DNA of 64,000 nt, from positions 6,669-70,668 of IMG/VR virus record IMGVR_UViG_3300014204_000016. The stretch is one strand, 5' to 3'. Position 1 is the first letter of the stretch; the number at the start of each line of letters is the position of its first letter. The DNA is from a virus (lineage: Duplodnaviria; Caudoviricetes). A program made the position numbers and the translations under genes. The notes under the pieces are model-generated. The model saw only the letters and a list, made by a program, of their open reading frames with translations, was not told where the DNA came from and did not search any database. This document shows, piece after piece, positions 11,669 to 29,151 of the stretch.

Positions 11669-11670
11669 GA

Positions 11671-11898
11671 TTATTTAATCCTTCCGGTTGTAAGTTTATG
11701 TTTCGGCTTTGATATTCTTGATCCTTTTGAAATTCTATTTGACGGACATTTGCATTTTAGGCATACCGGCACACAAAATGTGCATAGCCATATTTTAGCG
11801 CCACAATTAAGGCATTTTCTAAATCCTAAACCGTCTTGTTTATTGCATATTTCGCACTTCTTAATATCATTTCCCAAAATATCTTTTTCCGGCTCCAT
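11671..11898 (-). CDS. small multi-Cys zinc-finger protein
   Basis: CEIC, CLNC, CTFC, CLKC. Confidence 0.65.
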   Translation of the reverse strand: MEPEKDILGNDIKKCEICNKQDGLGFRKCLNCGAKIWLCTFCVPVCLKCKCPSNRISKGSRISKPKHKLTTGRIK

Positions 11899-11904
11899 GA
11901 TTAT

Positions 11905-14082: not shown

Positions 14083-14297
14083 TACTCCATTTCTTCGGTG
14101 ATTACGCTTTTGATAATTTCGTCATTGCCCATCATGTAAAATTCGATTGTATTTTCATTCAGATTATCATAGCATAATTTCCCGAAGTCATTTGTTGCGT
14201 AAACTTCTGATAATTCCGTCTCTGCCTCTCCGTCTTGGAATAAATACATAAAGCCTTTTTTGAATAACTGCGGATAAATATTTTTCTGTTTCTTCAT
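14076..14297 (-). CDS. hypothetical protein
   Basis: AAAGGA RBS upstream on the minus strand. Confidence 0.6.
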   Translation of the reverse strand: MKKQKNIYPQLFKKGFMYLFQDGEAETELSEVYATNDFGKLCYDNLNENTIEFYMMGNDEIIKSVITEEMEYC

Positions 14298-14332
14298 GGC
14301 TTCTGTGTCCTTTCAATTTGTCCCTAAAGGGA

Positions 14333-14614
14333 TTATTTTGTCCAGTTATCCTTACATTCCTGAATCGTGTAGTGCTTGGCCGCGCAATTATCGAGCCGGT
14401 AAAGCTGTTTGTAATAGTCGCGCTCGGCGTTCCAGTTCATGAGTAAAAACATGATTGCCAAAATTGCCGTGAATAAACAAGCACAACCTATTTTGCCTCT
14501 GCGCTCCTGTGCGCGTGTCGGGCGGTGGTCTTCCCAATATTGCGCGTCTTTTCCGTTTGGTCGGTGTTCAAGTTGGCCGTCTTCGTTCCAAACAAAATCT
14601 TTCGGGGTGTTCAT
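14333..14614 (-). CDS. single-TM membrane protein
   Basis: IGCACLFTAILAIMFLLM. Confidence 0.65.
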   Translation of the reverse strand: MNTPKDFVWNEDGQLEHRPNGKDAQYWEDHRPTRAQERRGKIGCACLFTAILAIMFLLMNWNAERDYYKQLYRLDNCAAKHYTIQECKDNWTK

Positions 14615-14781
14615 GCTGCTGCTCCTTTCCGTCTCTGGATTTTTGCCGCCTCTACCATCAAAGCGTTTGCATCTTTCAACATTGTGGCCGCTGCTGCTTC
14701 CAGTTCTGCCGTTGCTGCGTCAAATAGCCGGTTGGCCGTTGCGTTGCTGTTCGTCCGTCTGGTGTCGATTGTGGCATTCAT
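14611..14781 (-). CDS. 56-aa Ala-rich protein (not in ORF track)
   Basis: AAAGGAG RBS; ATGA overlap with the downstream gene. Confidence 0.6.
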   Translation of the reverse strand: MNATIDTRRTNSNATANRLFDAATAELEAAAATMLKDANALMVEAAKIQRRKGAAA

Positions 14782-14810
14782 GGCGTCCGTTCTCCTTTGG
14801 GTTTTTGTAT

Positions 14811-15218
14811 TCAGTCTTCATTTGGTAGCATGATAGTCAAGCATGGCGTCAAATCGTCATTCGGGCCGCAATTCATTTTGAATTGATAAACTTTCTGGTG
14901 TTCGTAAAGCGGCATCATGCATTCAAAAATAACTTCCTGTTCAGACAATACAAAAGTTTTGTAGTGAATAGACATGAAAAGCATGTCGTGAATAATTCCC
15001 TTGTGGTCGCAATCAAAGCGGGGATTATTAACTGCTTCGTCTATAATGCTCCAAACTGGAGCTGTGCAAGCAATCGGATATTTATAATGCTGTCTGCATA
15101 CGTCCGGCGCAATAGCTGACAAGTCAATCAAAACGCCGTCTTCAATCGCTTGGGCGCGTGTATAGCTGTGGATCACTTCGCCAAATAAATCAGTCATTGT
15201 CGGGTTTGTTTCGCTCAT
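14811..15218 (-). CDS. DUF6573-like phage/plasmid protein
   Basis: VIHSYTRAQAIEDGVLIDLS ... LTIMLPNED. Confidence 0.7.
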   Translation of the reverse strand: MSETNPTMTDLFGEVIHSYTRAQAIEDGVLIDLSAIAPDVCRQHYKYPIACTAPVWSIIDEAVNNPRFDCDHKGIIHDMLFMSIHYKTFVLSEQEVIFECMMPLYEHQKVYQFKMNCGPNDDLTPCLTIMLPNED

Positions 15219-15466
15219 GATATTTCAATCTCCTTTCCGGTTTCGTACCAAACATAAACTCGGTCATTCCCCAAACTTCCCTTAACAAGTTTGCCTGTCC
15301 AGTTCATTTTCTCGCATAGCGTTCTGACTGCGTGGTCGTGCGCTTGTTCGCTGTCTTCTTCAATCGGTACGGGGATGCTTATTGTGTTTCTGTCGCTGTC
15401 TGTGGCCTTAATGCGTGGGCCTCTGTGGTTTGTCGGGCCGGTGTAACTTGTGATTATGGCCTTCAT
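15215..15466 (-). CDS. conserved-looking small phage protein
   Basis: MKAIITSYTGPTNHRGPRIKAT; ATGA overlaps. Confidence 0.7.
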   Translation of the reverse strand: MKAIITSYTGPTNHRGPRIKATDSDRNTISIPVPIEEDSEQAHDHAVRTLCEKMNWTGKLVKGSLGNDRVYVWYETGKEIEIS

Positions 15467-15660
15467 TCTGCGCCTCTGCTTTCTGCCTCTAAGGGCATTT
15501 TATTTTCTGTAAATACTTCGGCTTGTATTTTTGCAAGCCATATTTTCCCTAATTGCCGCCGCGCTTCGTTCTCTGAATCTATCCCGTCAAGCTGCATCTG
15601 TTTCGCTGCCGTCTTCGTCTGCATCTTCGGGCCTTTCCTTTCTGCCTCTAAGGGCTTCAC
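15463..15660 (-). CDS. hypothetical protein with duplicated PLEAE motif
   Basis: 18-bp repeat CTTTCTGCCTCTAAGGGC at 15479-15496 and 15638-15655. Confidence 0.6.
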   Translation of the reverse strand: MKPLEAERKGPKMQTKTAAKQMQLDGIDSENEARRQLGKIWLAKIQAEVFTENKMPLEAESRGAE

Positions 15661-16244
15661 GTTTTAACTCTGCATTCTCTAATTGTTGTTTCAAGTAAAG
15701 TGCGGGTTTCCCAATAATGCCTTTGCCACTGGTCGCGCTCAATTTCTGCGGCGTCTGCCTGTTCGGTGGCTGTCTCTCTCAAGTTTCCGCTGTTGTGTAA
15801 TTTCTCAAATAAAATATCTCTTTCGTTTGTCTGTCTGCCGGTCATAATTAAATACTTCTCAAGGCTGCCGGTGTTCGCTGTTTTGAGTCTTACATTTTCG
15901 ATAAAGTCTTTTTGTAACTTCTCGAAACAAAATTTTATATCTGCCGTCTCTGTTTTGAGTCTTAGATTTTCTGCTCTAAGGGTATCTATTTCGTCAACCG
16001 CTGTCTTTAGTGCTGCCTCGGTTTCTTCAATGTATGCGCGCAAGGTGTCGGCGGGGTTGGTATCGTCAACGGCGCCGGTGTATCTGTCGCGCATTTCTGA
16101 TTCTTTTACGGTTTCTTTTATCGCTTCAAATCTTTGGCTGTCGTTCTCTGGATAATTAAAAATAATGTCTTCGGATTCCATTACTGCGCGATATAACTTA
16201 TCTGTATATTCAATCGCTTTTTTTGCTTCTTCTGCCGTCTTCAT
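15657..16244 (-). CDS. coiled-coil hypothetical protein
   Basis: Preceded by the 30-bp leader repeat. Confidence 0.7.
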   Translation of the reverse strand: MKTAEEAKKAIEYTDKLYRAVMESEDIIFNYPENDSQRFEAIKETVKESEMRDRYTGAVDDTNPADTLRAYIEETEAALKTAVDEIDTLRAENLRLKTETADIKFCFEKLQKDFIENVRLKTANTGSLEKYLIMTGRQTNERDILFEKLHNSGNLRETATEQADAAEIERDQWQRHYWETRTLLETTIRECRVKT

Positions 16245-16375
16245 TTTGTGGCTCTCTCTTTCCGGCGGGTTGGCCGCCGTTGGTTTTGTAGGAGCGTATC
16301 TGCCCGCTGTCGGCCATGTGCTTCAGGGTGTTGATGCTGACTCCGAGATACTCACTTGCCTCTGTAATTCTCACG

Positions 16376-16624
16376 TTATACCTCTTTCATATAAGTGCGC
16401 TTCGGCCTGTGCGCGATTTTCTGCAACAGGCACACACCTTCGCTTTCGAGTACCCTGCCAGAAAACACTCCGCAAGCGATTTCAAAGTCGGGGTCGCTGT
16501 TCGTGCATTTGTAGCCGTCATCCGTGTGCCACGCGAACCTATCTCCGTGAAAGTCGAAGATGATTCTCGCTTTCCGCTTGATGGTCTTTCCGCAGTAGTG
16601 ACAGTTAGGCAGTGGCTTGCTCAT
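16376..16624 (-). CDS. Cys/His-containing hypothetical protein
   Basis: AGGA RBS; CHYC motif. Confidence 0.6.
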   Translation of the reverse strand: MSKPLPNCHYCGKTIKRKARIIFDFHGDRFAWHTDDGYKCTNSDPDFEIACGVFSGRVLESEGVCLLQKIAHRPKRTYMKEV

Positions 16625-16625
16625 G

Positions 16626-16844
16626 TTATTGTTTCCTTCCTATTTTTCCCGCAAGTGCGGATTTTGTTTTTGCGACTTCGGATTCATGATAAAGTCGTGA
16701 ATAACCACAAGTATCCACGCGATAATGAATACCCGTCCCGGCTATAGTTATTTCTTTTACTTCACACTTACTCAAACAGTCGTTCCATAGAACGAATACG
16801 GTATCGCCTATATTGTGCTTGAAAGATTTTCTATGCTGTGGCAT
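16626..16844 (-). CDS. small beta-barrel-like phage protein
   Basis: FKHNIGDTVFVL...YRV; follows the 30-bp leader repeat. Confidence 0.65.
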   Translation of the reverse strand: MPQHRKSFKHNIGDTVFVLWNDCLSKCEVKEITIAGTGIHYRVDTCGYSRLYHESEVAKTKSALAGKIGRKQ

Positions 16845-17058
16845 CGTTGGCTCTCTCTTTCCGGCGGGTTGGCCGCCTGTGTCTTTGTAAAATTCCCCTA
16901 AGGGCTTATTTCGTGCGCGTGTCGCGTGGTCTGCGCCGGTGGGCTGCTGCCGGTGGCCGTGGGGCCGGATCGGGGGCGGCGTTTCGGTTTTCCGGCGGTG
17001 CCGGCGCCCGGTTCGGCTGTCCCGGCGCGCGCGTCTCCGGCTGCCTGTGTATGTCTTT

Positions 17059-17247
17059 TTAACAATATAAATAACTTTCGTTTTCTCGCTTTTCGTGGTG
17101 TCTGAAATATTGGGCGGCTGCTGTGTATTGCTCGGCGTCTTCGCCGTTCTGCGCTGCTACTCTCTCGCAATATCGCGCGGCGGCTGTTGTGTTTCCGGTA
17201 AAGGTGATTTTAACTGTTCGGACTATTTCGTGTATGCTCGGTTTCAT
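17059..17247 (-). CDS. hypothetical protein
   Basis: AAAGGAG RBS. Confidence 0.55.
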   Translation of the reverse strand: MKPSIHEIVRTVKITFTGNTTAAARYCERVAAQNGEDAEQYTAAAQYFRHHEKRENESYLYC

Positions 17248-17388
17248 GCTGTTGGCGTCTCCTTTCTGCGCTGTTTTGCGCCGTTCTGGTGTAGTTGTCG
17301 GCTTTTCGCCGGTTTCGTGCCTCTGGCGTCAATCTGGCGGGGTTTTCGGCTGCTGTGGGCCGTTCTTCCCGTCTGCATTTCTGGCCGT

Positions 17389-18486
17389 TTATACTTTGGC
17401 GGCGTTCTCGGCGTCCATTTTCGCAAGTTCCGCGCGGATAGCTTCGCGCGTTTCGCTGTCTGAATTGTTCATGATTTCGATTAGGTCGGCGCGCTGCCTC
17501 GCCTGTTCGCTGACTTCCTCGTCTTCGGGGTCTGTCCAGTCGTTCAAGCGGCTGCCTTCCGGCGTCTGGTCGGGCTGTAAAGCTGTGGCGGCTGCTGTCT
17601 GTAGTTCTTCCGCTGTCGGGCCGTTTACGGGCTGCGGGGCTGTCTCCGGGCCGTTGTCGGGTCTGTAGTCTTCTCCGCTGTCGGTTCTCGGCGTCTCGGT
17701 TGTCGGTGTCGGGGCTGCCTCGGCTGTAAAGTCTATTGATAATTCTTGGGCCGTGGCTCCGGTCATTAGCTCGGCGGGGATTCCGGTTTCGGGTATTTCG
17801 TCAAATATGCGCATCTCTGCGGCTTGTATGCCGGTTGTCGTGGTAAATTTCATTAGCTCGCTTTCATCCAATTGGCGTCCGGCTTTCTTAATCTCTTTCG
17901 TTATGTCGCGCGCTTTCTTTTTCATGGCGTCCATTAGCTTTTTGAGTTCTTCGCTTTTGGCGTCTGGCAATAGTGCATCAAGTCCTTTCATTTCCTTTAG
18001 TACGTCTCTTATGGCGTCCGGGTTCGCTGCTTTTACTGCCGCCTTTAGGTCTGTCAATCCGTTGGTTATCATCTGACTTATTGCCTGTAGTGCTTGGGCG
18101 TTGTCGCTCGTGATTTGAAAAGTAATTATCTGGCTATATATCCGGCTGTAATATGCTCCGCTGTTGAATTCGTCAACCTGTTGGATTATCTCTTTCTCGG
18201 CTTCGGTTATGGCTTCGAACGTCTGCGGGATGTCCGGCGCAAATAGTCCTATATCCGATATCGCGCCTTTGGTGGCCGTCTTCAATGCGGTTTTGATTCT
18301 GGCTCGGAGTGCGCGCGCGCGGTCGTGTTCCGGCTTGTCTTGGATTTCGCGCGTTGTCTCCCATTTGACAAGCTCATTTTTTCCGTTTGTTTCTTCTTCT
18401 CTGGATGTGGTTTTATAGCTTACATTTCCCGTCAAGCTCACGTCATGCAATATCAATATGCTCGGTTTCAAAGGTATGCGTCTCAC
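17389..18486 (-). CDS. helical partner of the AAA+ ATPase, with low-complexity acidic tail
   Basis: GTG start at 18486 after GGAGAAAGGA; VSLTGNVSY...KWETTREI..EHDRA. Confidence 0.75.
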   Translation of the reverse strand: MRRIPLKPSILILHDVSLTGNVSYKTTSREEETNGKNELVKWETTREIQDKPEHDRARALRARIKTALKTATKGAISDIGLFAPDIPQTFEAITEAEKEIIQQVDEFNSGAYYSRIYSQIITFQITSDNAQALQAISQMITNGLTDLKAAVKAANPDAIRDVLKEMKGLDALLPDAKSEELKKLMDAMKKKARDITKEIKKAGRQLDESELMKFTTTTGIQAAEMRIFDEIPETGIPAELMTGATAQELSIDFTAEAAPTPTTETPRTDSGEDYRPDNGPETAPQPVNGPTAEELQTAAATALQPDQTPEGSRLNDWTDPEDEEVSEQARQRADLIEIMNNSDSETREAIRAELAKMDAENAAKV

Positions 18487-18520
18487 TGTCTTTGTTCCTT
18501 TCTCCGGCGCGTGGCTCGGA

Positions 18521-20032
18521 TTAGATTTTGAATATGTCTGCTGCGTTTGCTGTCTTTGCTTCCGGTTCTTTACTCGCATTTCGCGCGCTTGTCTTCGCCC
18601 ATTGTTTAAGGGCTTCCATTTTCACGGCGTCAATTTTCGTGATAGGTGTAATTCCTCTGATTGCCTCTGTAACGTCTTCGGTTGTTGGTTCGCGCTTGCC
18701 GTCATTGTATGCCGTTGTTAAGGCTTCCTGATAGGCTCTTTCAATCTCTGCGCCTGTATAACCGTCTGATACTTCGGCAATCCGCGCGGCGTCTGTGTTC
18801 GCTGTGCGTGGGTATTTCTTCATCATAACTTTTGCTATTGCTTCGCGTTCTGTCCGGTGCGGTGTTCCTACATAAAACAAAGCGTCAAATCTTCCGGTTC
18901 TCTTTAGCTCCGGTGGTAACTTTGATATGTCGTTTGCCGTTGCCAAAATAAATAACTTTCCGGCGCGTTCCTGTGTCCATTGTAAAAAATTCCCGAATAT
19001 GCGCGCGGCTGTTCCGCCGTCTCCTTCGCTGCCTGTTCCGCTTAGTGCCTTTTCAATTTCATCTATCCAAACAACCGCCGGTGATACTGCGTCAAGTATT
19101 TGTAAAGCGTTTCTCATGTTCTGCTCTGATTCGCCTACATATTTCCCGTATATGGCCGCAATATCGAATTGAATTAATGGGATTCTAAAGGCTGCTGCTG
19201 CTGCTTTTGCCGTCAAGGATTTTCCGCCGCCTGGAATACCTACTAATAATATTCCTTTGGGTGCGGGGATTCCCCAATTTTGGGCGTCTGCTGTCATTGC
19301 CGCGCGCGCTTTCAACAAATATTCTTTCAGGAATTCTAAACCGCCGATTGCCTCTAAACCGCGCGGGTCTGGATCGGTCCACGTTAAAGCCGCTGACTTA
19401 ACATAATTGCGCTTTTCCTTTGCAATAAACTCCGGCGTGATTGCTCCAGTGTTAACCAAAGATTTTAGAATAGCATTCCGCGCGGTGTCGCTGTCTAAAC
19501 CTGTCAAGCTGTCCAGTATTGCGCTTTGGGTTTCTTCGTCCGGTGTCTTTTCGGGATTCGCCGTGATTGCAAGTGATAAAAGGGCGGCTTGTTCGTCTCT
19601 GGTGGGTAGTTCAAGCGGTATTTCTAATATGCCGTTTATTGTCTGCGGTGGTGGTGTGGTGTCCAAAAAAACAAATAGCTTTTGGGTTTTACTGTCCCGT
19701 TTCCGTCCGTCTGTCAATTCGTCTTTTATAAGGCGTCTCAATCCGGCTTCCTGCAAGTGCTGTGTAATATCTTTGATAATGTATAGTGCGCGCTCCGGTT
19801 TGTTCCGCTGCTGCGCTGAAAACATTTCTTGGGGGTCGTATTTCGTGGCGTCTGCGCGCTGTGCCGTGTGGTCATATAATCCTGTAGTGACCGTCCATGT
19901 AAAGGGTAACATTTGCAAGTTGCCGGCTGCTTGTATTAATAGTGCCTCGGCGCGCGCTTCCTCTCTGGTCGTTGTCCATATTGCGCCGCATTTGCTCCGC
20001 TGCATGGCTTTGATTTGGTCTATATAATTCAT
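18521..20032 (-). CDS. AAA+ ATPase (Ycf46-like architecture)
   Basis: Walker A GIPGGGKS, Walker B VVWIDEIEK, sensor ATAN, Arg finger RTGRFD, degenerate N-terminal AAA-like half. Confidence 0.9.
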   Translation of the reverse strand: MNYIDQIKAMQRSKCGAIWTTTREEARAEALLIQAAGNLQMLPFTWTVTTGLYDHTAQRADATKYDPQEMFSAQQRNKPERALYIIKDITQHLQEAGLRRLIKDELTDGRKRDSKTQKLFVFLDTTPPPQTINGILEIPLELPTRDEQAALLSLAITANPEKTPDEETQSAILDSLTGLDSDTARNAILKSLVNTGAITPEFIAKEKRNYVKSAALTWTDPDPRGLEAIGGLEFLKEYLLKARAAMTADAQNWGIPAPKGILLVGIPGGGKSLTAKAAAAAFRIPLIQFDIAAIYGKYVGESEQNMRNALQILDAVSPAVVWIDEIEKALSGTGSEGDGGTAARIFGNFLQWTQERAGKLFILATANDISKLPPELKRTGRFDALFYVGTPHRTEREAIAKVMMKKYPRTANTDAARIAEVSDGYTGAEIERAYQEALTTAYNDGKREPTTEDVTEAIRGITPITKIDAVKMEALKQWAKTSARNASKEPEAKTANAADIFKI

Positions 20033-20090
20033 TGGTTGGTTTCCTTTCGTTCTCTATGCGGTTTATATGCCGCTGTTTTGTCGTTCTCTT

Positions 20091-20375
20091 TTAGTGCTGT
20101 ATGCCGTGGGCGTGGGCGTGTTCGTGCGTTCTGATAGCGTCTGTCGTGTTTACTCCGGCGCGTCTTAGGGCTGCGGCTGCGTCCGGTTGTTTTGCAAGTC
20201 CGGCGATAATGCAAGCGTCTCCCATCGGGCCGCGCTCGGCTGCCGATAGTCCTAAAATTTCAAGTCTGCCGGTTCGCGCGTTCCGTTTTACGGTGATTTC
20301 TCCTTTCAATATTTTTCGTTTCGCTGCCGCCAAAATTGCCGCCTTTCTTAGCTGTTCTAAATATTCACAGGCCAT
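20091..20375 (-). CDS. small protein with His-rich C-terminus
   Basis: MACE..., GDAC, ends HEHAHAHGIQH; directly upstream of the AAA gene. Confidence 0.7.
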   Translation of the reverse strand: MACEYLEQLRKAAILAAAKRKILKGEITVKRNARTGRLEILGLSAAERGPMGDACIIAGLAKQPDAAAALRRAGVNTTDAIRTHEHAHAHGIQH

Positions 20376-20480
20376 ATTTTTTAGTTCCTCTCTCCGGTTT
20401 ATTTTTCCCGTGTCGGGCGTCCGGCGGTGGCCGCGCGGTCTGTCTGGATCGCCGCGCGGCTGCTGTCGGGCGTCCGGCGT

Positions 20481-21341
20481 TTATGCGTGGTCTATTGCCT
20501 CTCTTAGTTCCTCGGCGTATGCAATATAATTTTTTATGCGCTCAATTATTCCGCTTTCATCATCATTAAAGGTAATTCCGGCTTTGGCTTCTGCTGCTTC
20601 AATTACGTTGTGGGCTTCGTTTATAATGTTCATGCGTTTGATATTATATTCGCTGTCTTCGGCTGCTCTCTCTCTTACTTGTGCAAGTAAATTATGCAAT
20701 TCTCCATAATTGCGCGCGGCTGTGTTAAGGTCTTCGGCTCTCTGCGTTGCTATTGCTGCAATTTCCGTCAAGCTGCTTTGAAGTTCTGTGGCTTCCTGTC
20801 GGGCTGCGTCTCTCTCATTCTGCGCCGTTTCGATTGCCGTTGCTGCCGTCTCCATATTGTGCCGGATTTCGTTCTGTAGTTCTCGGATTTCCTGTGCTGC
20901 GGCTTCTGTCTCTATGCGTCTCTCTCTCCAGTCTTCTAATTCCTCGGCGTCTTCGTCTCGCTTGTCGATTTCGTTTTCCTGTTTGCTGATTGTCTTAATT
21001 AAGGCGTCAATAACTTTTCCGGCTGCGTCTTTTTCCTCGGTCAAGGTTTTGATTTCTTCGGCCATTGTAGCCAAATGATTTTTGGCCGCTGTCAAGTCTG
21101 TTTCTGCGCCGTCTCTCTCTGCTCTGATTTTGTCTATCGTGTCCGTGTAGTCTGATATAATCTGCCGCGCGCTTTCCAGTTCTCCGGCTGCGGTCTGTTC
21201 TCTTGCCTCGGCTTCATTCGCGCGTTTCGCTTGTGCGTCAATCTGGTTTCGGAGTCCGGTGGTTGATATTTCAAGCTGTATTTTTATGCTCTTTTCTAAT
21301 TCCTCGGTAAAGCTGTTGATTAGTTCTTTAGGTATTCTCAT
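20481..21341 (-). CDS. long coiled-coil protein
   Basis: Ala/Glu/Arg-rich heptads; GGAG RBS. Confidence 0.75.
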   Translation of the reverse strand: MRIPKELINSFTEELEKSIKIQLEISTTGLRNQIDAQAKRANEAEAREQTAAGELESARQIISDYTDTIDKIRAERDGAETDLTAAKNHLATMAEEIKTLTEEKDAAGKVIDALIKTISKQENEIDKRDEDAEELEDWRERRIETEAAAQEIRELQNEIRHNMETAATAIETAQNERDAARQEATELQSSLTEIAAIATQRAEDLNTAARNYGELHNLLAQVRERAAEDSEYNIKRMNIINEAHNVIEAAEAKAGITFNDDESGIIERIKNYIAYAEELREAIDHA

Positions 21342-21404
21342 TTCTTTTATTCTCCGTTTCTGGCCGTCTGGCCGTGGGTTTGTTCCGGCGTTTGCCGGTT
21401 GTGA

Positions 21405-21710
21405 TTAAAATATTTCTGTCGCGTTTGGAAAGTGCGCGCGGATAGCTTCGGCGGCTGCGCTTTTCAGTTCTCCGGCGGTCACGTTCTCGGCTGCTGCGTT
21501 TCGGGCTGCGGTTATCAATATCCGCGCGTGTTGTAAATATTCGTTGGTGTTAAGGTCCGGCGCGCTCTCTCTTACGATTTTATATGCTGCGTCTGTCTTC
21601 TGTGCCGGTGACAAGTGCGCATTTGAGAATAAATTAATTAACCGGCTGCCGGTGCTGCGCGCGCTCGGTGTCTGCGCTCTCTGCGTCTCTGCAAGTGTGT
21701 TATATTTCAT
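21405..21710 (-). CDS. hypothetical protein
   Basis: GAAAGGA RBS preceded by a CCGGC-GCA-GCCGG hairpin. Confidence 0.65.
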   Translation of the reverse strand: MKYNTLAETQRAQTPSARSTGSRLINLFSNAHLSPAQKTDAAYKIVRESAPDLNTNEYLQHARILITAARNAAAENVTAGELKSAAAEAIRAHFPNATEIF

Positions 21711-21928
21711 GGTCTGCTTTTCCTTTCTCCGGCTGCGCCGGTCTGGTTTTGGTTTACTTTGCTATTGCTATTACTGCGCCTCGGTAAAGCTGATAGTCAA
21801 CCGTGGGGATTTTTCGCTTTCTGTAAATTTCTAATATCGCCGCTTTGGTTGTCTGCTGTTTCTCGGTCTGTTTGATTTCTGCGTACATGGTTTTTTTCCT
21901 TTCGTTTTTTTGGCCGTTGGCCGTGGTT

Positions 21929-22150
21929 TTATGCTTGGTTTCTAAGTTGCAATTTTTCGGGGTACTTCTCGGTAAAGCATTTCCATATTGATAGGATGTC
22001 TCCGGCGTCCGCTGTCGCTATAACTTCATATTTGCAATATTCGCAAAAGTCTCTTTGTATTGCTTCCGGCATTCTCGGCGTGTCAAGCTGCATGATAACT
22101 TTTAACATTTGGCCGCTGTCCGCCGCTGCTATCAATTTTGATTTATTCAT
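21929..22150 (-). CDS. hypothetical protein
   Basis: AGGAG RBS. Confidence 0.65.
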   Translation of the reverse strand: MNKSKLIAAADSGQMLKVIMQLDTPRMPEAIQRDFCEYCKYEVIATADAGDILSIWKCFTEKYPEKLQLRNQA

Positions 22151-22201
22151 GGTCTGCGTCTCCTGTGTCTTGTGTTTTGTTCTCTAAAGGCTTTCTATCG
22201 C

Positions 22202-22393
22202 CTAAAATAATTCAATCGCCTTACTCTCAATTATTCGGGTTTCCGTTGTGAATAAATCGCCGCAACCGCGCGCGCCTTCTTTGCGCATCTTACAATTTTT
22301 GAAGTTTTCACAATTAAAACATTCGTTAATTTTTGGCGTCTCATTTACTAATACTTGCGTTTTAATACTTGTGAATAGACTTGTTTGAGTCAT
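22202..22393 (-). CDS. small Cys-cluster protein
   Basis: CFNCENFKNC...GC. Confidence 0.6.
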   Translation of the reverse strand: MTQTSLFTSIKTQVLVNETPKINECFNCENFKNCKMRKEGARGCGDLFTTETRIIESKAIELF

Positions 22394-22440
22394 TTTATAA
22401 TCCCTACACTTTCCGGCCTAATGGCCAAAATTTTATAATT

Positions 22441-23298
22441 TTATGCTGTTAATTGCTTTTCTAATTTAGCAATTTTAATCTCCATATTTGTTAATTGCTT
22501 TTCTATCCATAAATTATCATTATCGGATAATGAGCTATTCTTTAATTGCCTATAGTTGAATTGCAAGTTATCAATTTTGGAAGTTATATCATTATACTTG
22601 TATTGTAAGTCGGACAATCTATCGGATAACTTTATTATCGCAATAGCTTTTTTGTCGGTATAATGCTTTTTTTGCTTTGCTTTTAATAGCTCAATAGAAT
22701 TATTCAATTTGTTGATTTTATCAGATAATTGAATTTTATCATTATCCGATTTTACGGCTTTTTTAACCGGAGTATAATCAATTATATAATCCATACTAAT
22801 AGTTAATAAATCATTATTAAATAAATCGGCGCAATTTATATACAAATTATCGCCGGAATTAATCAATGATAATAAAGCCGCGCGGATTGCAATTTTGGCT
22901 TTATCAATATCGCTGTAATTGTCTTTTTGCCTTATTTGTATATTCAATCCCGTAAAATCAATTTTATCACTATTGGCTTTATATTCTTTTTTAATTCTAT
23001 TAATGTTTTTATAGTCATCACTTTTATCATTAAGATTAATATTATCGAATAAACCGATAGTTTTATTAATGTCATATTTATAATTTGTATCAAAGTAGTC
23101 AATTATATAATCTATTAAATTATTTATATCCTTAGAATAAAATCGCGCGGCCTGTATCATTGATTGCAATATATTATCACTATTATTATCACAATGCGCG
23201 CAAACGTCATATTTGCAATTATCTAACTTATCACATAGCGAGCATGCGCCGCGCGCGGCTTTTAATTTACTTTCATATTGTTTGTTATTAACTATCAT
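22441..23298 (-). CDS. first gene of the leftward operon; N-terminal Cys cluster, Asp/Asn/Ile/Lys-rich, C-terminal coiled coil
   Basis: Long ORF in very AT-rich DNA. ATG 23298 preferred because it lies just downstream of the promoter. Confidence 0.7.
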   Translation of the reverse strand: MIVNNKQYESKLKAARGACSLCDKLDNCKYDVCAHCDNNSDNILQSMIQAARFYSKDINNLIDYIIDYFDTNYKYDINKTIGLFDNINLNDKSDDYKNINRIKKEYKANSDKIDFTGLNIQIRQKDNYSDIDKAKIAIRAALLSLINSGDNLYINCADLFNNDLLTISMDYIIDYTPVKKAVKSDNDKIQLSDKINKLNNSIELLKAKQKKHYTDKKAIAIIKLSDRLSDLQYKYNDITSKIDNLQFNYRQLKNSSLSDNDNLWIEKQLTNMEIKIAKLEKQLTA

Positions 23299-23308
23299 CT
23301 TACTTACT

Positions 23309-23336
23309 ATTATATATCGCGCTATCAATATTACAA
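23309..23336 (-). promoter_or_regulatory. sigma70-type leftward promoter TTGTAA-16-TATAAT
   Basis: Read on the minus strand; perfect -10. Confidence 0.55.
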
Positions 23337-24902
23337 GTGCTTTTATAAAATAATTATCACGGCTTTTATTTGCGGTTTATACGGCTTTTATATCGTGTTA
23401 TGTTTGTGGTTAATATATCGCTTTATTTGTTATTGGTTATTAGTTTTATCTATTTTAATAATTATCTATTTTGTTATTTGTGCAATTTATTAGTTATTAG
23501 TTATGCCTTGAGTCTATTGCACTCATATACCTTGAGTCTGCCGGCATATAGGCTTGTTGATATTAATGCGCTCATAGGGCTTGAGTCTATTGCTATCAAT
23601 GCGCGCGTGATTTTACTTTAATTTACGCCATAATTTTATAGCTCTAAGCTATTAATTATCGGCATTATTCAATTATTGGATTGCCGGTATTATTGAATGG
23701 ATAGAATTCAATACCGGTATTATCGGCGCATTATTAGGATTGAATAAACAAGTCTTATATTGAATTATAAGCTATTGAATTAACAAGCGGATATAATGCC
23801 GGATTATATATATTCTATTCTCTTACATTATTTACATGCCGGAATAATCAATTCTATCATGTCGGAACTATTGCCGCGCGGAATTATTGAATTATTGCTA
23901 TTATGCCGGATTATATCATTGCAAACTTGCCGTATATTAGTTATTGTATTTTATGTGCTTTAACTTATTTTATCGTGTAATTATTGGAATTATCGGAATA
24001 AACAAGCATATTATTTTATGTAATTATCGGAATTATATAATCTCAAAATTAAAAACACTATATATTATCGCATTATTTTAATTGCTATAATTATTACTTA
24101 ATTGCGAATTATTTTATTTTATTAATTATTATTTTAGTTATTATCTTATTTTATACGGCCATATTATTGAATTATTGCCGTATATTCATTGATTAAACAT
24201 GCTGAAACACGCAAAGCATAAAGCCTTAATAACTAAAGCATGAAAAAGCCCTGGGTTTATCGCATTATTTATTATCGCGTGTTATTCGTGCTTTAACTAA
24301 CGTGCTTTGCGTGTTTTGTGCTTTGCGCGCGCTTAAAAGTAACGGCTTGTTTTGGTTTTCGGGATTCCGGACGGCTGCGGCACTGCCTAATAGCGAAGAC
24401 CGCCCCTGCCAAAATAAAACCGGTAACTTTTCGAACCTGAATATACAAAGTGAAAAGTGAACCCAAAAATATATAAAAATTTGAGCCTGCAGGACGGCCA
24501 CGACAACGGCAACAGGACGATCTGGAGCGAAACGAGCCATTGACCGGGCGCGGCCCTCGAAAGGCTTAGACAGCGAATTTCGAGACATGAAATGCTTGGA
24601 AACCGGGGCGCCGTGGGATTGGGCGATAATAAATAAGATAATCCAAAAAATAACCAAAAGGGATAAGCCAATAAGTTAAATAACTCGAAACCGGGGAATA
24701 AGTGACCGCGGGGTGATGAGCCTGAATATACATATTAATTACATCATTCGTGTGCGCGGCAAAGATTTAAGTCTTTAGTTACAAACTGGCAATATACGGA
24801 AATACGGGGATGCAAAAACATTAAAAGATTTTAATGTAAAAAGAAGGGTGGTCCGGGGGTGGGGATACTTGCTGCGGGGATCGGCGCCGGCGGTATAAAT
24901 GT

Positions 24903-24928
24903 AAGAACCGCCCTTTCGGGCGGCTCTT
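24903..24928. other. isolated GC hairpin AAGAACCGCCC-TTTC-GGGCGGCTCTT
   Basis: Inverted repeat with no U tract on either side. Confidence 0.6.
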
Positions 24929-25084
24929 AGGCTCACGCTGCTTTGGCAGATGAGCGATTGGGTTGCTGCTGACAACGGCGTAAGATTTCTACGGGGTTGT
25001 GACTCCTTCTACGCGTGGTAGATGAGTTGATTTCATTATAGGGTGCGTAATTATAAAGTCAAGTTATACCTTCCGGGTGGGTAG

Positions 25085-25172
25085 GTAGTCGACAGGCCGG
25101 AAAGTTCGAAACCGGGCCGGAAACGGGGATTATAAATATTTTACGGCGGGTATTGACTCGGGTAGTCGACAG
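25085..25172 (+). promoter_or_regulatory. 12-bp repeat GGTAGTCGACAG (25085-25096 and 25161-25172); candidate operator
   Basis: Exact repeat with palindromic core; the second copy is inside the promoter spacer. Confidence 0.5.
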
Positions 25173-25181
25173 TGGTAATAT
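25153..25181 (+). promoter_or_regulatory. sigma70 promoter TTGACT-17-TAATAT for the replication operon
   Basis: Near-consensus with optimal spacing. Confidence 0.75.
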
Positions 25182-25318
25182 ACGGGCATGGCGGCAGGAA
25201 ACAATATCACAAAACAGCAGTTGAAATAACAAACGATAGCTTTGCATGAGCGTCATTGTACCCGTCCCGGCCGCCATACCTCTACGGGGCAATGGCGTTC
25301 ATGGAGGGCTATCAGACA

Positions 25319-25516
25319 ATGTTCAAAACAACTGGATTTAATACAGATACGGAGCAATGGCGCTTATCCTATGGCTCTGACGTTTCGGATTATATTTTTA
25401 AGGTGAAGAAAAAAGAGTGGTATTTTATAAATATTGTTGCTCTAAAAATCGAACCCTTGTCTGCGGTAGATTCTTTGCCGCTTAACTATCTAAGGTCTAA
25501 GGCGAATAAAAAATGA
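25319..25516 (+). CDS. hypothetical protein
   Basis: GGAGG RBS; ATGA overlap with the initiator gene. Confidence 0.55.
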   Translation: MFKTTGFNTDTEQWRLSYGSDVSDYIFKVKKKEWYFINIVALKIEPLSAVDSLPLNYLRSKANKK

Positions 25517-26589
25517 TCGAAGTCGGTTGGTGGAAATTTCACCGCAAAATAGAAAACTCTGAAACGTGGAAGCGCCTTAATCCGTTTGGCCGGGATGTTC
25601 TTATTGCGATTTTGAATAATGTTGATTTTGAAAGTGGCGTCTGGATCACGAGTGTTCCTAAAATTAAAAATCACGTTCACCAATCAACCGGAGAGCAAAA
25701 TATCAAGACCGCTTTACGGATAATGAGAGAGACAAATTTCATTTCGGAAGAACTGATACAGCTAACCGATGTAAAACAGAGAAAAATCACTGTAATCAAC
25801 TGGCTTATTTATCAACACAAAATTACAACTAACCGATGCCAACCGGTGGAAACCGAAAAACTAACTGATGGACTAACCGGTGGACTAACCGGTGGAAATG
25901 AAAAAAATAGTGGCGTGAATACTGAAATAAATAATAAATTAGAATTACCGCTAACCGATGAACTAACCGGTGGACTAACCGGTGGAAATGAAAAAACTAA
26001 CCGGCAAGAAGTATTTAAAAGAATAACTACAAAAGAAGTAAAGAATAAAGATTTAAAAGATTTTCTTGTTGACGATTCAAAAGACGAACCGCCAACGGAG
26101 ACGGTAATCCCCGCATTACCTAAAAAGGCAATTAATAAAAAATTAAAACCCTTATTTAGTTTTGAGCCAATAGATTTAGAATTAGCTGAATTACTCAAAT
26201 CGTTAATTATTGAAAATAAACCGGATAGAAAAATAACTGGATCAATAAATTCTTGGGCAAACGAAATAAGATTAATGCGAACTCGGGATAATCGTAATAT
26301 AATTAAAATCAGGGAAATAATTACTTGGTCACAAAAAGATTCATTCTGGTGGAAAAATATATTATCCGGTTCAAAGCTTAGAGAGCAATATGATAAACTC
26401 GAAACAGATATGAATGATAAATCGAAAAGTAACGGATTTACCCGTTTTCCGACAAAAGAAGAAATAAGGCAACAAAAGTCGATGGAGGCGGTAAATAACT
26501 ATAAATTGAGAAAGGAACAGAATAACCATGTTGAATCAACAGGACAAGAAGATCGAGGAAATGTTGGCGCTGATTGGACTGACGTATGA
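25513..26589 (+). CDS. phage replication initiator (lambda O-like)
   Basis: N-terminal GWWKFHRKI winged-helix, central iteron repeats, C-terminal WSQKDSFWWKNILSGSKLREQYDKL. Confidence 0.85.
   Translation: MIEVGWWKFHRKIENSETWKRLNPFGRDVLIAILNNVDFESGVWITSVPKIKNHVHQSTGEQNIKTALRIMRETNFISEELIQLTDVKQRKITVINWLIYQHKITTNRCQPVETEKLTDGLTGGLTGGNEKNSGVNTEINNKLELPLTDELTGGLTGGNEKTNRQEVFKRITTKEVKNKDLKDFLVDDSKDEPPTETVIPALPKKAINKKLKPLFSFEPIDLELAELLKSLIIENKPDRKITGSINSWANEIRLMRTRDNRNIIKIREIITWSQKDSFWWKNILSGSKLREQYDKLETDMNDKSKSNGFTRFPTKEEIRQQKSMEAVNNYKLRKEQNNHVESTGQEDRGNVGADWTDV
25762..26005 (+). repeat. iteron array (about 10 copies of CTAACCG(A/G)TG and close variants); probable replication origin
   Basis: Copies at 25762, 25829, 25839, 25861, 25873, 25885, 25951, 25963, 25975 and 25997, followed by AT-rich DNA. 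Confidence 0.8.
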
Positions 26590-27067
26590 AAGAGAAATAA
26601 CGGAGCCGCTAATTGCAATTTACGAGGACGCGCTTTCGGATTACACAAAACAACAGATCGACGCTGCGGCCAAGAGATTAATTCAAACCAGTAAGTTCTT
26701 CCCGCGGCCGGCGGAGTTTATTGCGATACTGGACCCGGCGCCGTCCGGTAACTTGGATGTCGTGGTGTCCGCCGGAGCATGGACGGAAATGGTGCGGTAT
26801 CTTCAATCCACAAAGAAATTAGGCGAATTAGAGGATAGGGCGCTTGAAAAAACAATCCGGTTATTTGGAGGCCGGGAAGTTTTAGCAAACGTGGATATTA
26901 AGACGCTCCAATATCTGCGTAAAGATTTTCAGGAAGTCTATCTGGCGTTTGCGACACCGGAACAAAAGCGGGATCGGCTTGTCGAGGCCGGCGCCACGGA
27001 AAGCATGTTACGGGCGCTGCCGGAGGTTGGGAATAACGCGAAACAACTGAAAGCGGGTGACAAATGA
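26528..27067 (+). CDS. helicase loader/inhibitor-like replication protein (DUF6475/G39-like)
   Basis: IYEDALSDY...RLIQTSKFFPRPAEF; position directly after the initiator. Confidence 0.65.
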   Translation: MLNQQDKKIEEMLALIGLTYEREITEPLIAIYEDALSDYTKQQIDAAAKRLIQTSKFFPRPAEFIAILDPAPSGNLDVVVSAGAWTEMVRYLQSTKKLGELEDRALEKTIRLFGGREVLANVDIKTLQYLRKDFQEVYLAFATPEQKRDRLVEAGATESMLRALPEVGNNAKQLKAGDK

Positions 27068-27243
27068 GCGATTCAATGCTTGTCAAACAATTAGAGAGCG
27101 AATTAAAGTGGCTCGAAAAAGAAGCCGCCAATCCAAGCAATAGCGACAAGACAAGAGGCAAGCGGGGTATAGAGGCGGGTATAACGAGAAGAAGAATATC
27201 GGCACTAAGAAAAATAGAAGCGCAGAAAGCGGGTGACAAATGA
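27064..27243 (+). CDS. 59-aa basic protein (not in ORF track)
   Basis: MSDSMLVKQ...KAGDK; bounded by two junction repeats. Confidence 0.7.
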   Translation: MSDSMLVKQLESELKWLEKEAANPSNSDKTRGKRGIEAGITRRRISALRKIEAQKAGDK

Positions 27244-27614
27244 GCGACATAATTCTGGTAATTGTAATGCTGTTGGCGTGTTCGGTAGCGAAATCTGAAA
27301 GTGAATGGTCATGGCACTATAAATTCGATTATGCCATGGCTCATTCGATTGAAGAGCATCCTTACGTTGACCGATGTTCATGTAGCGATAGAATCCATCA
27401 TTATACGAGTTATATAGATTTTACTTACTGCACGACTGCAATCGTTTTCAAAACGGCTGAATGGGAAAGAAAAACAGATATGCTTACGGAGTTGTGTTAT
27501 TATTTAGGATGCCAATACGATATTTGGAATATTACCAGAGCCGTAACTGAAAAAAAAGAAAAGTGGTTTATCATTTACGAAAAATATGAATGCGCGAAAG
27601 CGGGTGACAAATGA
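27240..27614 (+). CDS. secreted or lipoprotein-like hypothetical protein
   Basis: N-terminal hydrophobic IILVIVMLLAC, a possible lipobox. Confidence 0.65.
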   Translation: MSDIILVIVMLLACSVAKSESEWSWHYKFDYAMAHSIEEHPYVDRCSCSDRIHHYTSYIDFTYCTTAIVFKTAEWERKTDMLTELCYYLGCQYDIWNITRAVTEKKEKWFIIYEKYECAKAGDK

Positions 27615-28309
27615 GCGACATGCTGACACGGGAAGACCTCAAGAAATTGCTACAAGAAAAACATTCACTGCTTTTTAATAGTTGTGTTTTGAGACACGAT
27701 GCCGCACTCCGCGCCGAGATTGATCGCCTTGCAAGTGGAGAATGCGAAATGATTGCGGACTTGGGCGAAGAAAACAATAAACTAAGGGCCGAGCTTGTCG
27801 CGAAGGACGCCGAGATTGCGCGGCTGAAATCCGCTATAGGCGTTGCCCTTCCATTTGTGGAAAACATGCTCGGCACCATGAATAACAGTGACGGCATAGT
27901 TGGGTGGCATCAAAACGGAGATGTCCTAAAGTGGAGCGATGGACACGATCAGGAAATGCGAGTGGCGAGAGATGCGCTGAGTGGCGTATTAGGCGAAAAA
28001 CTTAGGCAGTATGCTTCTGTCGATAGCAATCATCTTGACGATTGGGGGAAAAGATTTCTCGATTTAGTTGACCCAGAACATAAAATTATTCCTCGTGAAG
28101 AATCCGACGCGACACTGATGGTTGACCCGCGAATCTGCAAGAACACCGAATTGCTTTGCTATAACTGCGCGTGTGAATTTTATAAGAGCGACAATAGCAT
28201 TGAGTGTTCCGCGAATAGATATATGAAAATTACGAGCGAGGCAAACAACAGAAAGCGACACGCCGACTGCCCCTGCGTACCCGCGATTATCAAAAACGAA
28301 AAGGAGTGA
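27611..28309 (+). CDS. coiled-coil protein with C-terminal Cys cluster
   Basis: CYNCACEF...C...HADCP. Confidence 0.7.
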   Translation: MSDMLTREDLKKLLQEKHSLLFNSCVLRHDAALRAEIDRLASGECEMIADLGEENNKLRAELVAKDAEIARLKSAIGVALPFVENMLGTMNNSDGIVGWHQNGDVLKWSDGHDQEMRVARDALSGVLGEKLRQYASVDSNHLDDWGKRFLDLVDPEHKIIPREESDATLMVDPRICKNTELLCYNCACEFYKSDNSIECSANRYMKITSEANNRKRHADCPCVPAIIKNEKE

Positions 28310-28315
28310 GCGAAG

Positions 28316-28777
28316 ATGAATACGCGTTATGTAGTGGGTTTCGTATTTAACAAGTCAATGACAAGGGTTGCTCTTATCAGAAAGAATCGCCCATCGTGGC
28401 AAGCCGGTAAACTCAACGGTATCGGCGGTCACATCGAAGAAAGAGAAACCGCAGTAAAAGCAATGGAGCGCGAATTTTATGAAGAAACGGGCGTAATGAT
28501 TAACGAGCTTAAATGGGAGAAGGTCGGCGTTATGTATCGTGATGATGAAGATTATTTCCAATGTCACTTTTTCAGATACATTTCTGTCAACGAGGATATA
28601 GATTTTCTTGCGCCCGGAATTACAGACGAAAAGGTTGAAGTACACTGCCTCAACGACTTGTCTGAATCATTGAGTAATGTTCCTTGGCTGATAGGAATGT
28701 GCCTCGACCTGAATCCCGGAGACTTTTCAAGTTATTCGATTAAGGCAACTATCGGTAAGAAAGGAGCCTCGAAATGA
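28316..28777 (+). CDS. NUDIX hydrolase
   Basis: Nudix box GGHIEERETAVKAMEREFYEETG. Confidence 0.9.
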   Translation: MNTRYVVGFVFNKSMTRVALIRKNRPSWQAGKLNGIGGHIEERETAVKAMEREFYEETGVMINELKWEKVGVMYRDDEDYFQCHFFRYISVNEDIDFLAPGITDEKVEVHCLNDLSESLSNVPWLIGMCLDLNPGDFSSYSIKATIGKKGASK

Positions 28778-29151
28778 ATGGCGAACCGTTAGAACTAACA
28801 GCCGATGAAGGAATGAGAATGTTGAAGTTTCTGAACATGTCACAAGATCAACTCGAAACATTCTTAAACGAAATGGATTACAGTGCCGCCGACACACTGG
28901 CGCTCTGGAAGCACATGAAGATTCTTGATGCGTTCATAAGAGACAATGAGGATGAAGTTGCTCCGGGATACGAAATGGTCCCCGCCGAGTACATGGAGTC
29001 CGTCGCGAAGTTGGTCGAGGCGGCGAAGCAAGTGAGAGATAACGCAAGTTGTGATGGCTTTCGATCTCATTGCGAGGGATGCGTTGATGCAGAATACTGC
29101 TTGACGCTTAGATTACAATCCGCGCTCGCCGCTGTCGAGAAGGGAGAATGA
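28774..29151 (+). CDS. hypothetical protein with Cys cluster
   Basis: ATGA overlaps on both sides. Confidence 0.65.
   Translation: MNGEPLELTADEGMRMLKFLNMSQDQLETFLNEMDYSAADTLALWKHMKILDAFIRDNEDEVAPGYEMVPAEYMESVAKLVEAAKQVRDNASCDGFRSHCEGCVDAEYCLTLRLQSALAAVEKGE

Follow-up and report, generated by a model that had tools for sequence, protein, structure and literature searches.

An AT-rich, repeat-built non-coding tract in a conserved module heading the early operon of an uncultured tailed phage

Large gene-free regions built from repeats are common beside the early genes of phages and are rarely explained. One lies in the DNA analysed here, a 64,000-nucleotide stretch (the window) comprising bases 6669-70668 of the 70,668-bp IMG/VR virus record IMGVR_UViG_3300014204_000016, and it raises the question of what an AT-rich, low-vocabulary kilobase at 23340-24300 (the tract) is doing beside a leftward early operon. 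The tract is a genuine non-coding, repeat-built element of a conserved bipartite module heading that operon; at present it is a well-documented, regulatory-looking spacer whose function we infer. The case offers a concrete and testable anatomy: two very different phages in which a homologous bipartite module faces one operon in a single orientation; an oriented 7-mer, specific to the lineage, with one copy touching the early promoter; strand-specific 'no-translation' biases; and a profile of restriction-site avoidance common to the tract and the whole early arm.

The virus is an uncultured virulent tailed phage (a siphovirus) of ~70 kb. It encodes a large terminase subunit, a portal, a major head protein and a 2,233-aa tape-measure-like protein; no tyrosine integrase was found in the phage, and a repressor is likewise not evident. 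Among its early-arm proteins are a 54-aa MerR/HTH_17-like protein (16210-16374) and an HTH_3 protein (genome 1867-2028). Its leftward genes (11153-23298) include a SNF2-type helicase and an AAA+ ATPase with its partner, and its rightward genes start at ~25300 with a lambda-O/DnaD-like initiator. Between the two arms is a gene-free gap of ~2 kb (23299-25300), of which the tract is the AT-rich left half. Throughout, 'sense' denotes the minus strand, that is, the direction of the leftward early operon.

The tract is real, non-coding and poor in words

The first-pass annotation described an AT-rich, non-coding kilobase with a restricted vocabulary, and both its extent and its non-coding status were confirmed. 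The tract and its internal features are:

23340-24300, minus strand: low-vocabulary AT-rich tract, with the lowest 6-mer entropy in the window; non-coding
24060-24160, no strand assigned: most AT-rich stretch of the tract, G+C content (GC) about 0.15
23309-23336, minus strand: early promoter-like site (TTGTAA, 16 nt, TATAAT) at the proximal tract end
23337-23343, minus strand: AAAGCAC abutting the -35 hexamer of the early promoter-like site
23955-23961, minus strand: mid-tract copy of AAAGCAC
24288-24324, minus strand: three copies of AAAGCAC, spaced 14 and 16 nt, at the distal tract edge
23506-23606, no strand assigned: four degenerate tandem units of ~24 nt, iteron- or operator-like, 170-270 bp upstream of the early promoter
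23640-24040, no strand assigned: array of same-strand word families (ATTATCGG, ATTATTG, TATTGAAT, ATGCCGGA, TTGCCG and others)
24205-24316, no strand assigned: perfect 14-bp inverted repeat at the distal boundary (arms 24205-24218 and 24303-24316)

The tract contains 285 A, 128 C, 142 G and 406 T (71.9% A+T), with T exceeding A on the plus strand. Its word usage is far from random: k-mer entropies for k = 3-8 lie 26 to 17 standard deviations below those of mononucleotide shuffles (z -26 to -17), so mononucleotide composition fails as an explanation, and shuffles preserving exact dinucleotide counts also exceed the entropy of the tract (z about -12 to -10, k = 3-8). Across 960-nt sliding windows it is the most word-poor segment of the 64 kb (6-mer z -10.4, median -2.6). 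The runner-up in low 6-mer entropy is a low-complexity coding stretch at 16.6-21.4 kb (z -7 to -10); this region (16600-21400) also has an extreme excess of A over T on its coding strand (plus-strand AT skew down to -0.58), and the two properties together indicate that the early proteins encoded there are of low complexity.

The vocabulary is much as first described. The triplets reported as nearly absent are scarce (CAG 0, 5.7 expected; GAC 0, 5.7 expected; CTG 3, 8.0 expected; CCC 1, 2.3 expected), as are TCC (0) and AGA (1). G and C are clustered, with CGG, GCC, CGC and GCG over-represented 4-6-fold, the two 11-12-mers quoted as recurring do recur, and the abrupt end near 24300 appears as a rise in GC from 0.24 to 0.49 between 24100 and 24450. 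Repeated words sit on one strand, and the low entropy is built from many small same-strand repeat families with no single word dominant. The lowest 100-nt GC of the whole genome (0.12) falls inside 23604-24248. TpA is enriched (rho 1.19 versus 0.78 elsewhere), and rho(CG) is about 2 and rho(GC) about 2.7, versus ~1.3 in the rest of the genome. Transcription changes direction where the tract lies, and cumulative GC skew has a local minimum there.

One 6,042-nt contig from the source run covers 19860-25901 with 0 differences and a depth equal to that of its neighbours (12 versus 11.7), and two groundwater metagenomes from a different study hold difference-free pieces of 200 nt (23875-24074) and 426 nt (23759-24184). 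The tract is therefore not an assembly artefact, a possibility raised when it was first described. Pieces identical to the phage in these two metagenomes, which come from a study separate from that of the landfill source, lie within window positions 17000-29000, and pieces with few or no differences indicate that the same virus is present in both landfill and groundwater.

Nor does the tract look like decayed coding sequence. There is no open frame of at least 40 codons on its minus strand and no local 3-base periodicity anywhere in 23140-24520; stop triplets are spread evenly over the three frames (43/39/36), and the k-mers common to the tract and the neighbouring gene for a 285-aa protein are no more numerous than composition predicts. 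Without coding periodicity or a k-mer excess with its neighbour, the tract is not a recent pseudogene or duplicate, and descent from the neighbouring gene was rejected on these grounds together with the even stops. Rfam gave no match at gathering score in the window, and only sub-threshold, chance-level matches in 23000-25600.

Repeats in the tract are short and oriented

The clearest motif is AAAGCAC, with five sense copies and no antisense copy where 0.1+-0.4 would be expected within the tract; the 64-kb window has no other minus-strand copies, and these five are distributed over the tract region, from the -35 hexamer of the early promoter-like site to the distal edge. Three of the four ~24-nt units have in common the 9-mer CTTGAGTCT (starts at 23507, 23531 and 23580), and the only plus-strand copies of this 9-mer in the window (n = 3) are those within 23506-23606. 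Unit spacings are 24, 22 and 27 nt, and the fourth unit is degenerate. These units produce a G/C periodicity of 12.2 bp (power 21.5; 95% of shuffles below 12.2), the one significant period of the tract and the strongest in the window; coding windows attain similar power, so the period carries little weight beyond marking the ~24-nt repeats.

The word-family array at 23640-24040 contains segmental duplications at offsets of 43, 211 and 248 nt, and its words are again strictly oriented (ATTATCG, 6 plus and 0 minus; ATTATTG, 7 plus and 0 minus). At the distal boundary, the arms of the 14-bp inverted repeat lie 84 nt apart and contain AAACACG and its complement; longer inverted pairs in the tract match at only 72-89%, which is typical of AT-rich DNA.

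The first-pass annotation also proposed that the tract could be a decoy or sink for host DNA-binding or defence proteins; motifs for Fur, H-NS and DnaA are not enriched. No convincing Fur box was found. The H-NS high-affinity motif is not enriched (107 versus 137 expected window-wide), with two weak matches in the tract. DnaA boxes are unclustered, with a single one-mismatch box in the tract (23405-23413) and 20 in the window against 15.2+-4.1 by chance. The first-pass suggestion of a curved UP-element array feeding the early promoter was correct in that the tract ends at an early promoter-like site, and the likeness to UP elements or curved DNA upstream of strong promoters goes as far as having AT-rich DNA in that place. 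UP elements are ~20 bp long and lie at -40 to -60, and curved DNA requires A-tracts phased at 10-11 bp. Such phasing is absent from the tract, in which the AA/TT spectrum has no 10-11-bp peak above shuffles, and a curved array is not supported.

A bipartite module is kept with the AAA+ operon

The tract is flanked by an orphan gene and by the GC-normal half of the gap, with further promoter-like sites:

22441-23298, minus strand: gene for the 285-aa first early protein, with 3-base periodicity reaching z 10.7
24301-25028, minus strand: GC-normal half of the gap, pyrimidine-rich, C>G on the sense strand and resembling a Rho-utilization (rut) site
24749-24848, minus strand: block homologous to L002:5984-6075 (70% identity, 101 nt, E = 2e-7)
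25035-25062, minus strand: best sigma-70-like site of the window (TTGACT, 16 nt, TATAAT; 11/12), directed leftward into the gap
25153-25181, plus strand: rightward promoter-like site for the replication operon, back-to-back with 25035-25062

The AAA+ ATPase has thousands of homologues, only four of which are >45% identical. The closest relative (58%) has a 1.5-kb gene-free divergent gap in the same place. In a second relative, locus L002, the AAA+ protein is 48% identical and the operon is preceded by a C-rich stretch with the homologous block, then by a tract free of open reading frames (ORFs), then by a promoter. The L002 tract is ~1.2 kb long (6460-7650) and purine-rich, and it ends at a perfect TTGACA-16-TATAAT. 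It too is built from repeats, with one 28-nt unit present seven times and GAATAAG 11 times against a shuffle mean of 4.2. It has its own oriented 7-mer, AAAGCGA (five sense, none antisense; 0.9+-1.0 expected). Over the 12-kb L002 locus AAAGCGA occurs 12 times in sense and never in antisense, continuing through the early operon (L002:8715-9803), and could there be either an oriented site family or a mere purine-rich coding bias.

Position and orientation relative to the AAA+ operon are the same in both phages. An AAACACG/CGTGTTT inverted pair marks the distal boundary of both tracts, and its two words occur once each in the L002 locus (6404 and 6547). TpA is enriched in the L002 tract to the same degree (rho 1.21 versus 0.80 elsewhere), and GpC is enriched in both tracts relative to their own genomes. 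The L002 module follows a co-directional operon that includes replication-associated genes, whereas the replication operon of this phage is divergent; the module thus keeps its orientation to the AAA+ operon and not to its other neighbour. Outside the tract the ~100-nt block aligns; the tracts themselves cannot be aligned, although they have 17 10-mers in common against 7.0+-3.6 expected, a modest excess.

Searches for further examples were negative. Distant blastn of 22400-25600 against 50,697 phage records returned no match, single-protein scans of IMG/VR with the initiator and a 295-aa ORF found no relatives, and an exact 14-mer scan of IMG/VR gave single chance matches only. A gapped pattern made from the conserved block had nine matches, none with block homology or an AAA+ gene, and a scan of GTDB genomes added nothing. 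The contigs carrying P0003 and P0004 end short of the tract region. A 6,008-bp contig from a second sample (L003) is 100% identical to L002:5936-11943. It starts at the first base past the stop codon of the upstream gene, where the non-coding module begins, and stops no more than 26 nt from the end of the 62-kb contig. These limits look like branch points of the assembly graph, which could reflect the edge of a mosaic module, a repeat or a physical end.

Promoter-like sites on both sides of the tract

At the proximal end, the first early ATG lies 10 nt past the -10 hexamer of the 23309-23336 site, so that the early message would be nearly leaderless, and this ATG has no Shine-Dalgarno motif, unlike most genes of the phage. 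The 285-aa product has an N-terminal cysteine cluster (CxxC...CxxC) and a coiled-coil-like tail; it has no homologue among 5.8 billion proteins, no Pfam or PHROG match and no detectable counterpart among the L002 early genes. Its gene (GC 0.27) has the dinucleotide character of the tract, with rho(CG) about 2.0 and rho(GC) about 2.7 against ~1.3 elsewhere, and the two form one AT-rich island at about 22300-24250. The gene also carries 67 stop triplets in one off-frame.

At the distal end, the homologous block carries a promoter-like TTGCCA, 17 nt, TAAATC (24792-24764) directed at the tract; the L002 version reads TTGCCA, 17 nt, CATAAT. Full sigma-70-like promoters are not enriched in the gap region as a whole (13 versus 18.2). 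Sense-strand C/G is 1.4-2.5 per 100 nt over 25060-24560. Candidate small ORFs at 24265-24975 have low coding scores, no families and no L002 counterparts. The GC-normal half also contains three same-strand copies of a GAAACCGGGG-type 15-mer (24596, 24684 and 25105; within 24596-25119).

The ~130 nt past the 25062-25035 site are predicted to fold into four hairpins (-51.5 kcal/mol versus -27.8+-3.9 for shuffles, z -6.1), and the minimum-free-energy structure makes up 34% of the ensemble. The fourth hairpin is a 12-bp, GC-rich, terminator-like stem ~120 nt past the leftward promoter-like site. The only Rfam match of 24895-25062 is sub-threshold (sX12, E 0.12). Judging from these folding models, the minus strand of 24895-25062 could be a stand-alone small-RNA-like unit, either a small RNA or a cis-acting leader or antiterminator RNA.

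A possible control region for the early operon

We tentatively favour a reading in which the tract may control and insulate the early promoter in cis, from upstream, by docking a sequence-specific factor. Within a ~2-kb gene-free control module inherited with the leftward AAA+ operon, it would be the AT-rich half that evolves fast, and its role would be exerted at the DNA level, as a long upstream control region or insulator for the promoter at 23336-23309. The sites on offer would be short, lineage-specific and in one orientation (AAAGCAC five times, the four ~24-nt repeats and the word families of 8-12 nt), and they would lie on easily deformed, TpA-rich DNA of low stability. A sequence-specific factor encoded by the phage or its host might occupy these sites and, by spreading or by looping between the three AAAGCAC copies that cluster ~1 kb away in the inverted-repeat element and the promoter-proximal copy, switch the early operon. 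The untranslatable kilobase would also keep the early promoter apart from the strong pair of back-to-back promoters, which lies 1.7 kb away. What we infer from this anatomy is the binding of a protein, the looping and the effect on regulation; the oriented 7-mers, the distal inverted pair and the TpA and GpC enrichment in both tracts suit a docking platform that acts as DNA. If this model is right, it describes a new early-gene switch in a widespread group of uncultured phages.

There are precedents for the arrangement. Lambda loops between its distal operators OL and OR, and the cluster A mycobacteriophages have oriented, asymmetric repressor sites known as 'stoperators'. The likeness to both lies in short sites in one orientation, with one overlapping or abutting a promoter and others up to ~1 kb away. 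The differences are that this phage has no evident repressor or integrase, that no single motif besides the 7-mer is well defined, and that the sites all lie within one gene-free kilobase and are not scattered over the genome.

Several observations weigh against a docking role. Only two examples are sequenced, their tracts are unalignable and their joint vocabulary is only modestly above chance. At ~160 more distant loci of the same ATPase (AAA+ genes 30-43% identical, from IMG/VR and JGI metagenomes) there is no analogous tract, and the spots of low entropy or low GC at these loci correspond to repeats in coding sequence or to ordinary genes. With the exception of the 7-mer and the 9-mer, no word of the tract stands much above shuffles. 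The excess of stops, the lack of GGA and the lack of ATG in L002, all described below, are not predicted by a role in DNA only and point to a constraint at the RNA level. Lastly, the foreign-looking dinucleotides common to the tract and the adjacent gene mean that its character may partly reflect ancestry.

A possible constraint on RNA that must not be translated

The main alternative, possible though doubtful, is that the tract acts once transcribed. RNA running toward the early operon would form a long untranslatable leader or spacer, serving as a firewall between transcription units or as a leader that needs antitermination. Rho would load on the C-rich, G-poor stretch, and termination or decay would follow in the A-rich, stop-dense, Shine-Dalgarno-free kilobase. 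The triplet biases suit selection on RNA that must not be translated. Sense-strand stop triplets number 111 in the tract against 85+-5 expected, the highest of 266 strand-windows, and 104 against 84+-5 in the L002 tract; the excess is confined to the sense strand. GGA is depleted on the sense strand of both (0 against 4.5+-1.7 here, 13 against 22.6+-3.1 in L002), and ATG is halved on that of L002 (13 against 27+-3). Part of the stop density may come from a common vocabulary, since the neighbouring 285-aa gene, which is real, is also stop-rich off-frame on its sense strand (94 against 81+-5).

The surroundings can be read the same way. The sense strand of the tract has more A than T, like the coding strand downstream, and the upstream half has more C than G in both phages, at the ratios given above here and at 1.5-4.3 in L002. 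The best sigma-70-like site of the window and the conserved promoter-like block are both directed into the gap, and the L002 module comes immediately after a co-directional operon, a place in which insulation would be of use. Set against this, the stable terminator-like hairpin beyond the strong leftward promoter may let little transcription reach the tract, and the -10 hexamer of the conserved promoter-like site is poor in this phage. The predicted RNA structure of the tract is unremarkable, neither unusually low nor unusually high (fold z -1.2 sense, -2.1 antisense), values on which a dedicated structured or structure-free RNA was rejected.

Known rut-plus-termination regions, such as lambda tR1 with its rut site, span about 100-300 nt and are not built from repeats. 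The tract and its flank resemble them, and untranslated leaders, in presenting an untranslated stretch with C>G followed by a long stop-dense region without ribosome-binding motifs between transcription units, and differ in being 1.7 kb long and repeat-built. Were the RNA-level account correct, the tract would represent a new kind of transcriptional firewall.

A less likely reading: acquired DNA without a dedicated function

It is unlikely that the tract has no dedicated function and is filler between promoters, that is, foreign AT-rich DNA acquired together with an orphan gene and inflated by local duplications. The idea draws on the single AT-rich island that the tract forms with the 285-aa gene, with its one unusual dinucleotide signature, on the lack of relatives of that gene and of any detectable L002 counterpart, and on the many small segmental repeats in a tract that does not align with that of L002. 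It leaves unexplained why L002 has an analogous tract in the same place and orientation beside a homologous block, why the 7-mers are oriented and clustered with a copy at a -35 hexamer, and why strand-specific triplet biases are common to both phages. It is also opposed by the absence of residual coding periodicity and of a k-mer excess with the neighbour gene, and by the lack in the tract of the same 4-bp palindromes that are missing from the coding early arm.

Site avoidance and the question of DNA entry

That last property concerns restriction sites. The tract had been put forward as a restriction-site-free injection leader, and in that form the claim does not stand, because CCGG occurs six times, GCGC five times, CGCG five times and there is an EcoRI site. 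Palindromes in general are not depleted (27 4-mers containing G or C versus 28.4+-4.9; seven 6-mers versus 10.7+-3.2). The claim does hold for the palindromes avoided by the early arm. For a set defined on 11153-22400 alone (ACGT, CTAG, GATC, TCGA and TTAA), the tract has 14 sites, all TTAA, against 22.9 expected, a count as low as that of 23 of 2,000 shuffles; the other four are absent against about 6.3 expected.

Over the leftward arm (11153-24518), GATC occurs eight times against 37 expected (z -6.1) and TCGA 19 times against 42 (z -4.3), with z-scores of -2.5 and -0.3, respectively, in the next 20 kb, and when the full genome is divided into 2-kb bins, the zone poor in GATC matches the leftward transcription unit. 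CTAG, ACGT and TTAA are avoided genome-wide, CTAG being nearly absent (none in the 13-kb arm, five in the next 20 kb), and CCGG is ~2-2.7-fold over-represented throughout the window (z about +10). The GATC and TCGA depletion of the arm and the matching avoidance in the tract are compatible with early exposure of the arm to host restriction, as in T5.

The T5 comparison also bears on the earlier statement that no standard feature type explains the tract, which was too strong, because untranslated, repeat-rich control regions beside phage early genes are known, the T5 iss region among them (10.1101/866236). The first-transferred segment of T5 is exposed to restriction and holds a 1.66-kb stop-rich, repeat-rich untranslated region; this region 3/iss, close to a physical end within the 10-kb terminal repeat, combines eight ordered DnaA boxes with inverted repeats of 131 bp, and its sequence is strongly conserved across the T5-like phages (Davison 2020, 10.1101/866236). 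The two cases are alike in belonging to virulent siphoviruses, in comprising at least 1 kb of non-coding, stop-dense DNA with many direct and inverted repeats, and in lying beside the first-expressed genes with an adjacent early segment that avoids restriction sites. They differ in that the tract lacks a DnaA-box cluster, has an inverted repeat of only 14 bp compared with 131 bp in T5, and has no alignable conservation with its one relative.

We consider it improbable that the tract is a DNA-entry or genome-end element, in which case the leftward arm would be exposed first and the tract would act in cis, as a leader or a stop signal, at a physical end or close to it. Such a role would account for a GATC and TCGA depletion specific to the leftward arm, for the avoidance that the tract shares with it and for the parallel with the untranslated region in the first-transferred segment of T5 (10.1101/866236). 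The nearest cultured relatives of the large terminase subunit are SPO1-like phages (~25% identity). Phages of that group package with long terminal repeats; the terminase identity is too low for a packaging mode to be inferred. The T5 hallmarks (a DnaA-box cluster, long inverted repeats and conservation, here with the L002 tract) are all missing, and the far end of the arm is a gene overlap that leaves no room for an end. There is no step in contig depth. The direct terminal repeat ('DTR') annotated for the record is an exact 123-bp overlap inside a long gene, far from the tract, and indicates a genome assembled as a circle with arbitrary record ends. With the tract single-copy in the 70,668-bp record and its contig depth equal to that of its flanks, the first-pass proposal of a terminal repeat falls as well. 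A more specific version, in which the GATC- and TCGA-poor arm would be a 'pre-early' segment and the bipartite module a signal for staged entry or exposure of DNA, a counterpart of T5 iss without DnaA boxes in an unrelated, uncultured siphovirus clade, is the least probable of the ideas considered here. If a DNA-entry role were true, it would be evidence for staged genome delivery outside the T5 group.

The replication origin probably lies elsewhere

A second replication origin or DNA-unwinding element, made of the iteron-like repeats, the AT-rich stretch and the inverted repeat, is also improbable. In its favour are the four ~24-nt iteron-like direct repeats, the 14-bp inverted repeat with its perfect arms, DNA less stable than any other in the genome (GC 0.12-0.15 around 24060-24160) and a location at the transcription-direction switch and the local minimum of cumulative GC skew. 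Iteron-type origins such as lambda ori, inside gene O, and the non-coding, repeat-rich origins of lactococcal phages likewise have, near replication genes, an inverted repeat, an AT-rich stretch and direct repeats about two helical turns long. The differences are that the initiator of this phage has a separate iteron array in its own gene, and that the tract repeats, with three good copies, are degenerate and 450 nt distant from the AT-richest stretch. The tract lacks the 12-mers of that array and a DnaA-box cluster, and in L002 it lies ~4.7 kb from the replication genes.

The initiator gene (25513-26589), 1.2 kb from the tract, holds ~9 copies of a different, 12-nt repeat (25828-25990), followed within the gene by a stretch with GC of 0.28-0.32. 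Iterons followed by an AT-rich stretch inside the initiator gene are the usual origin layout of the lambda-O-like family, and this array is the probable replication origin. The contigs of the source run break exactly at the 25828-25990 array.

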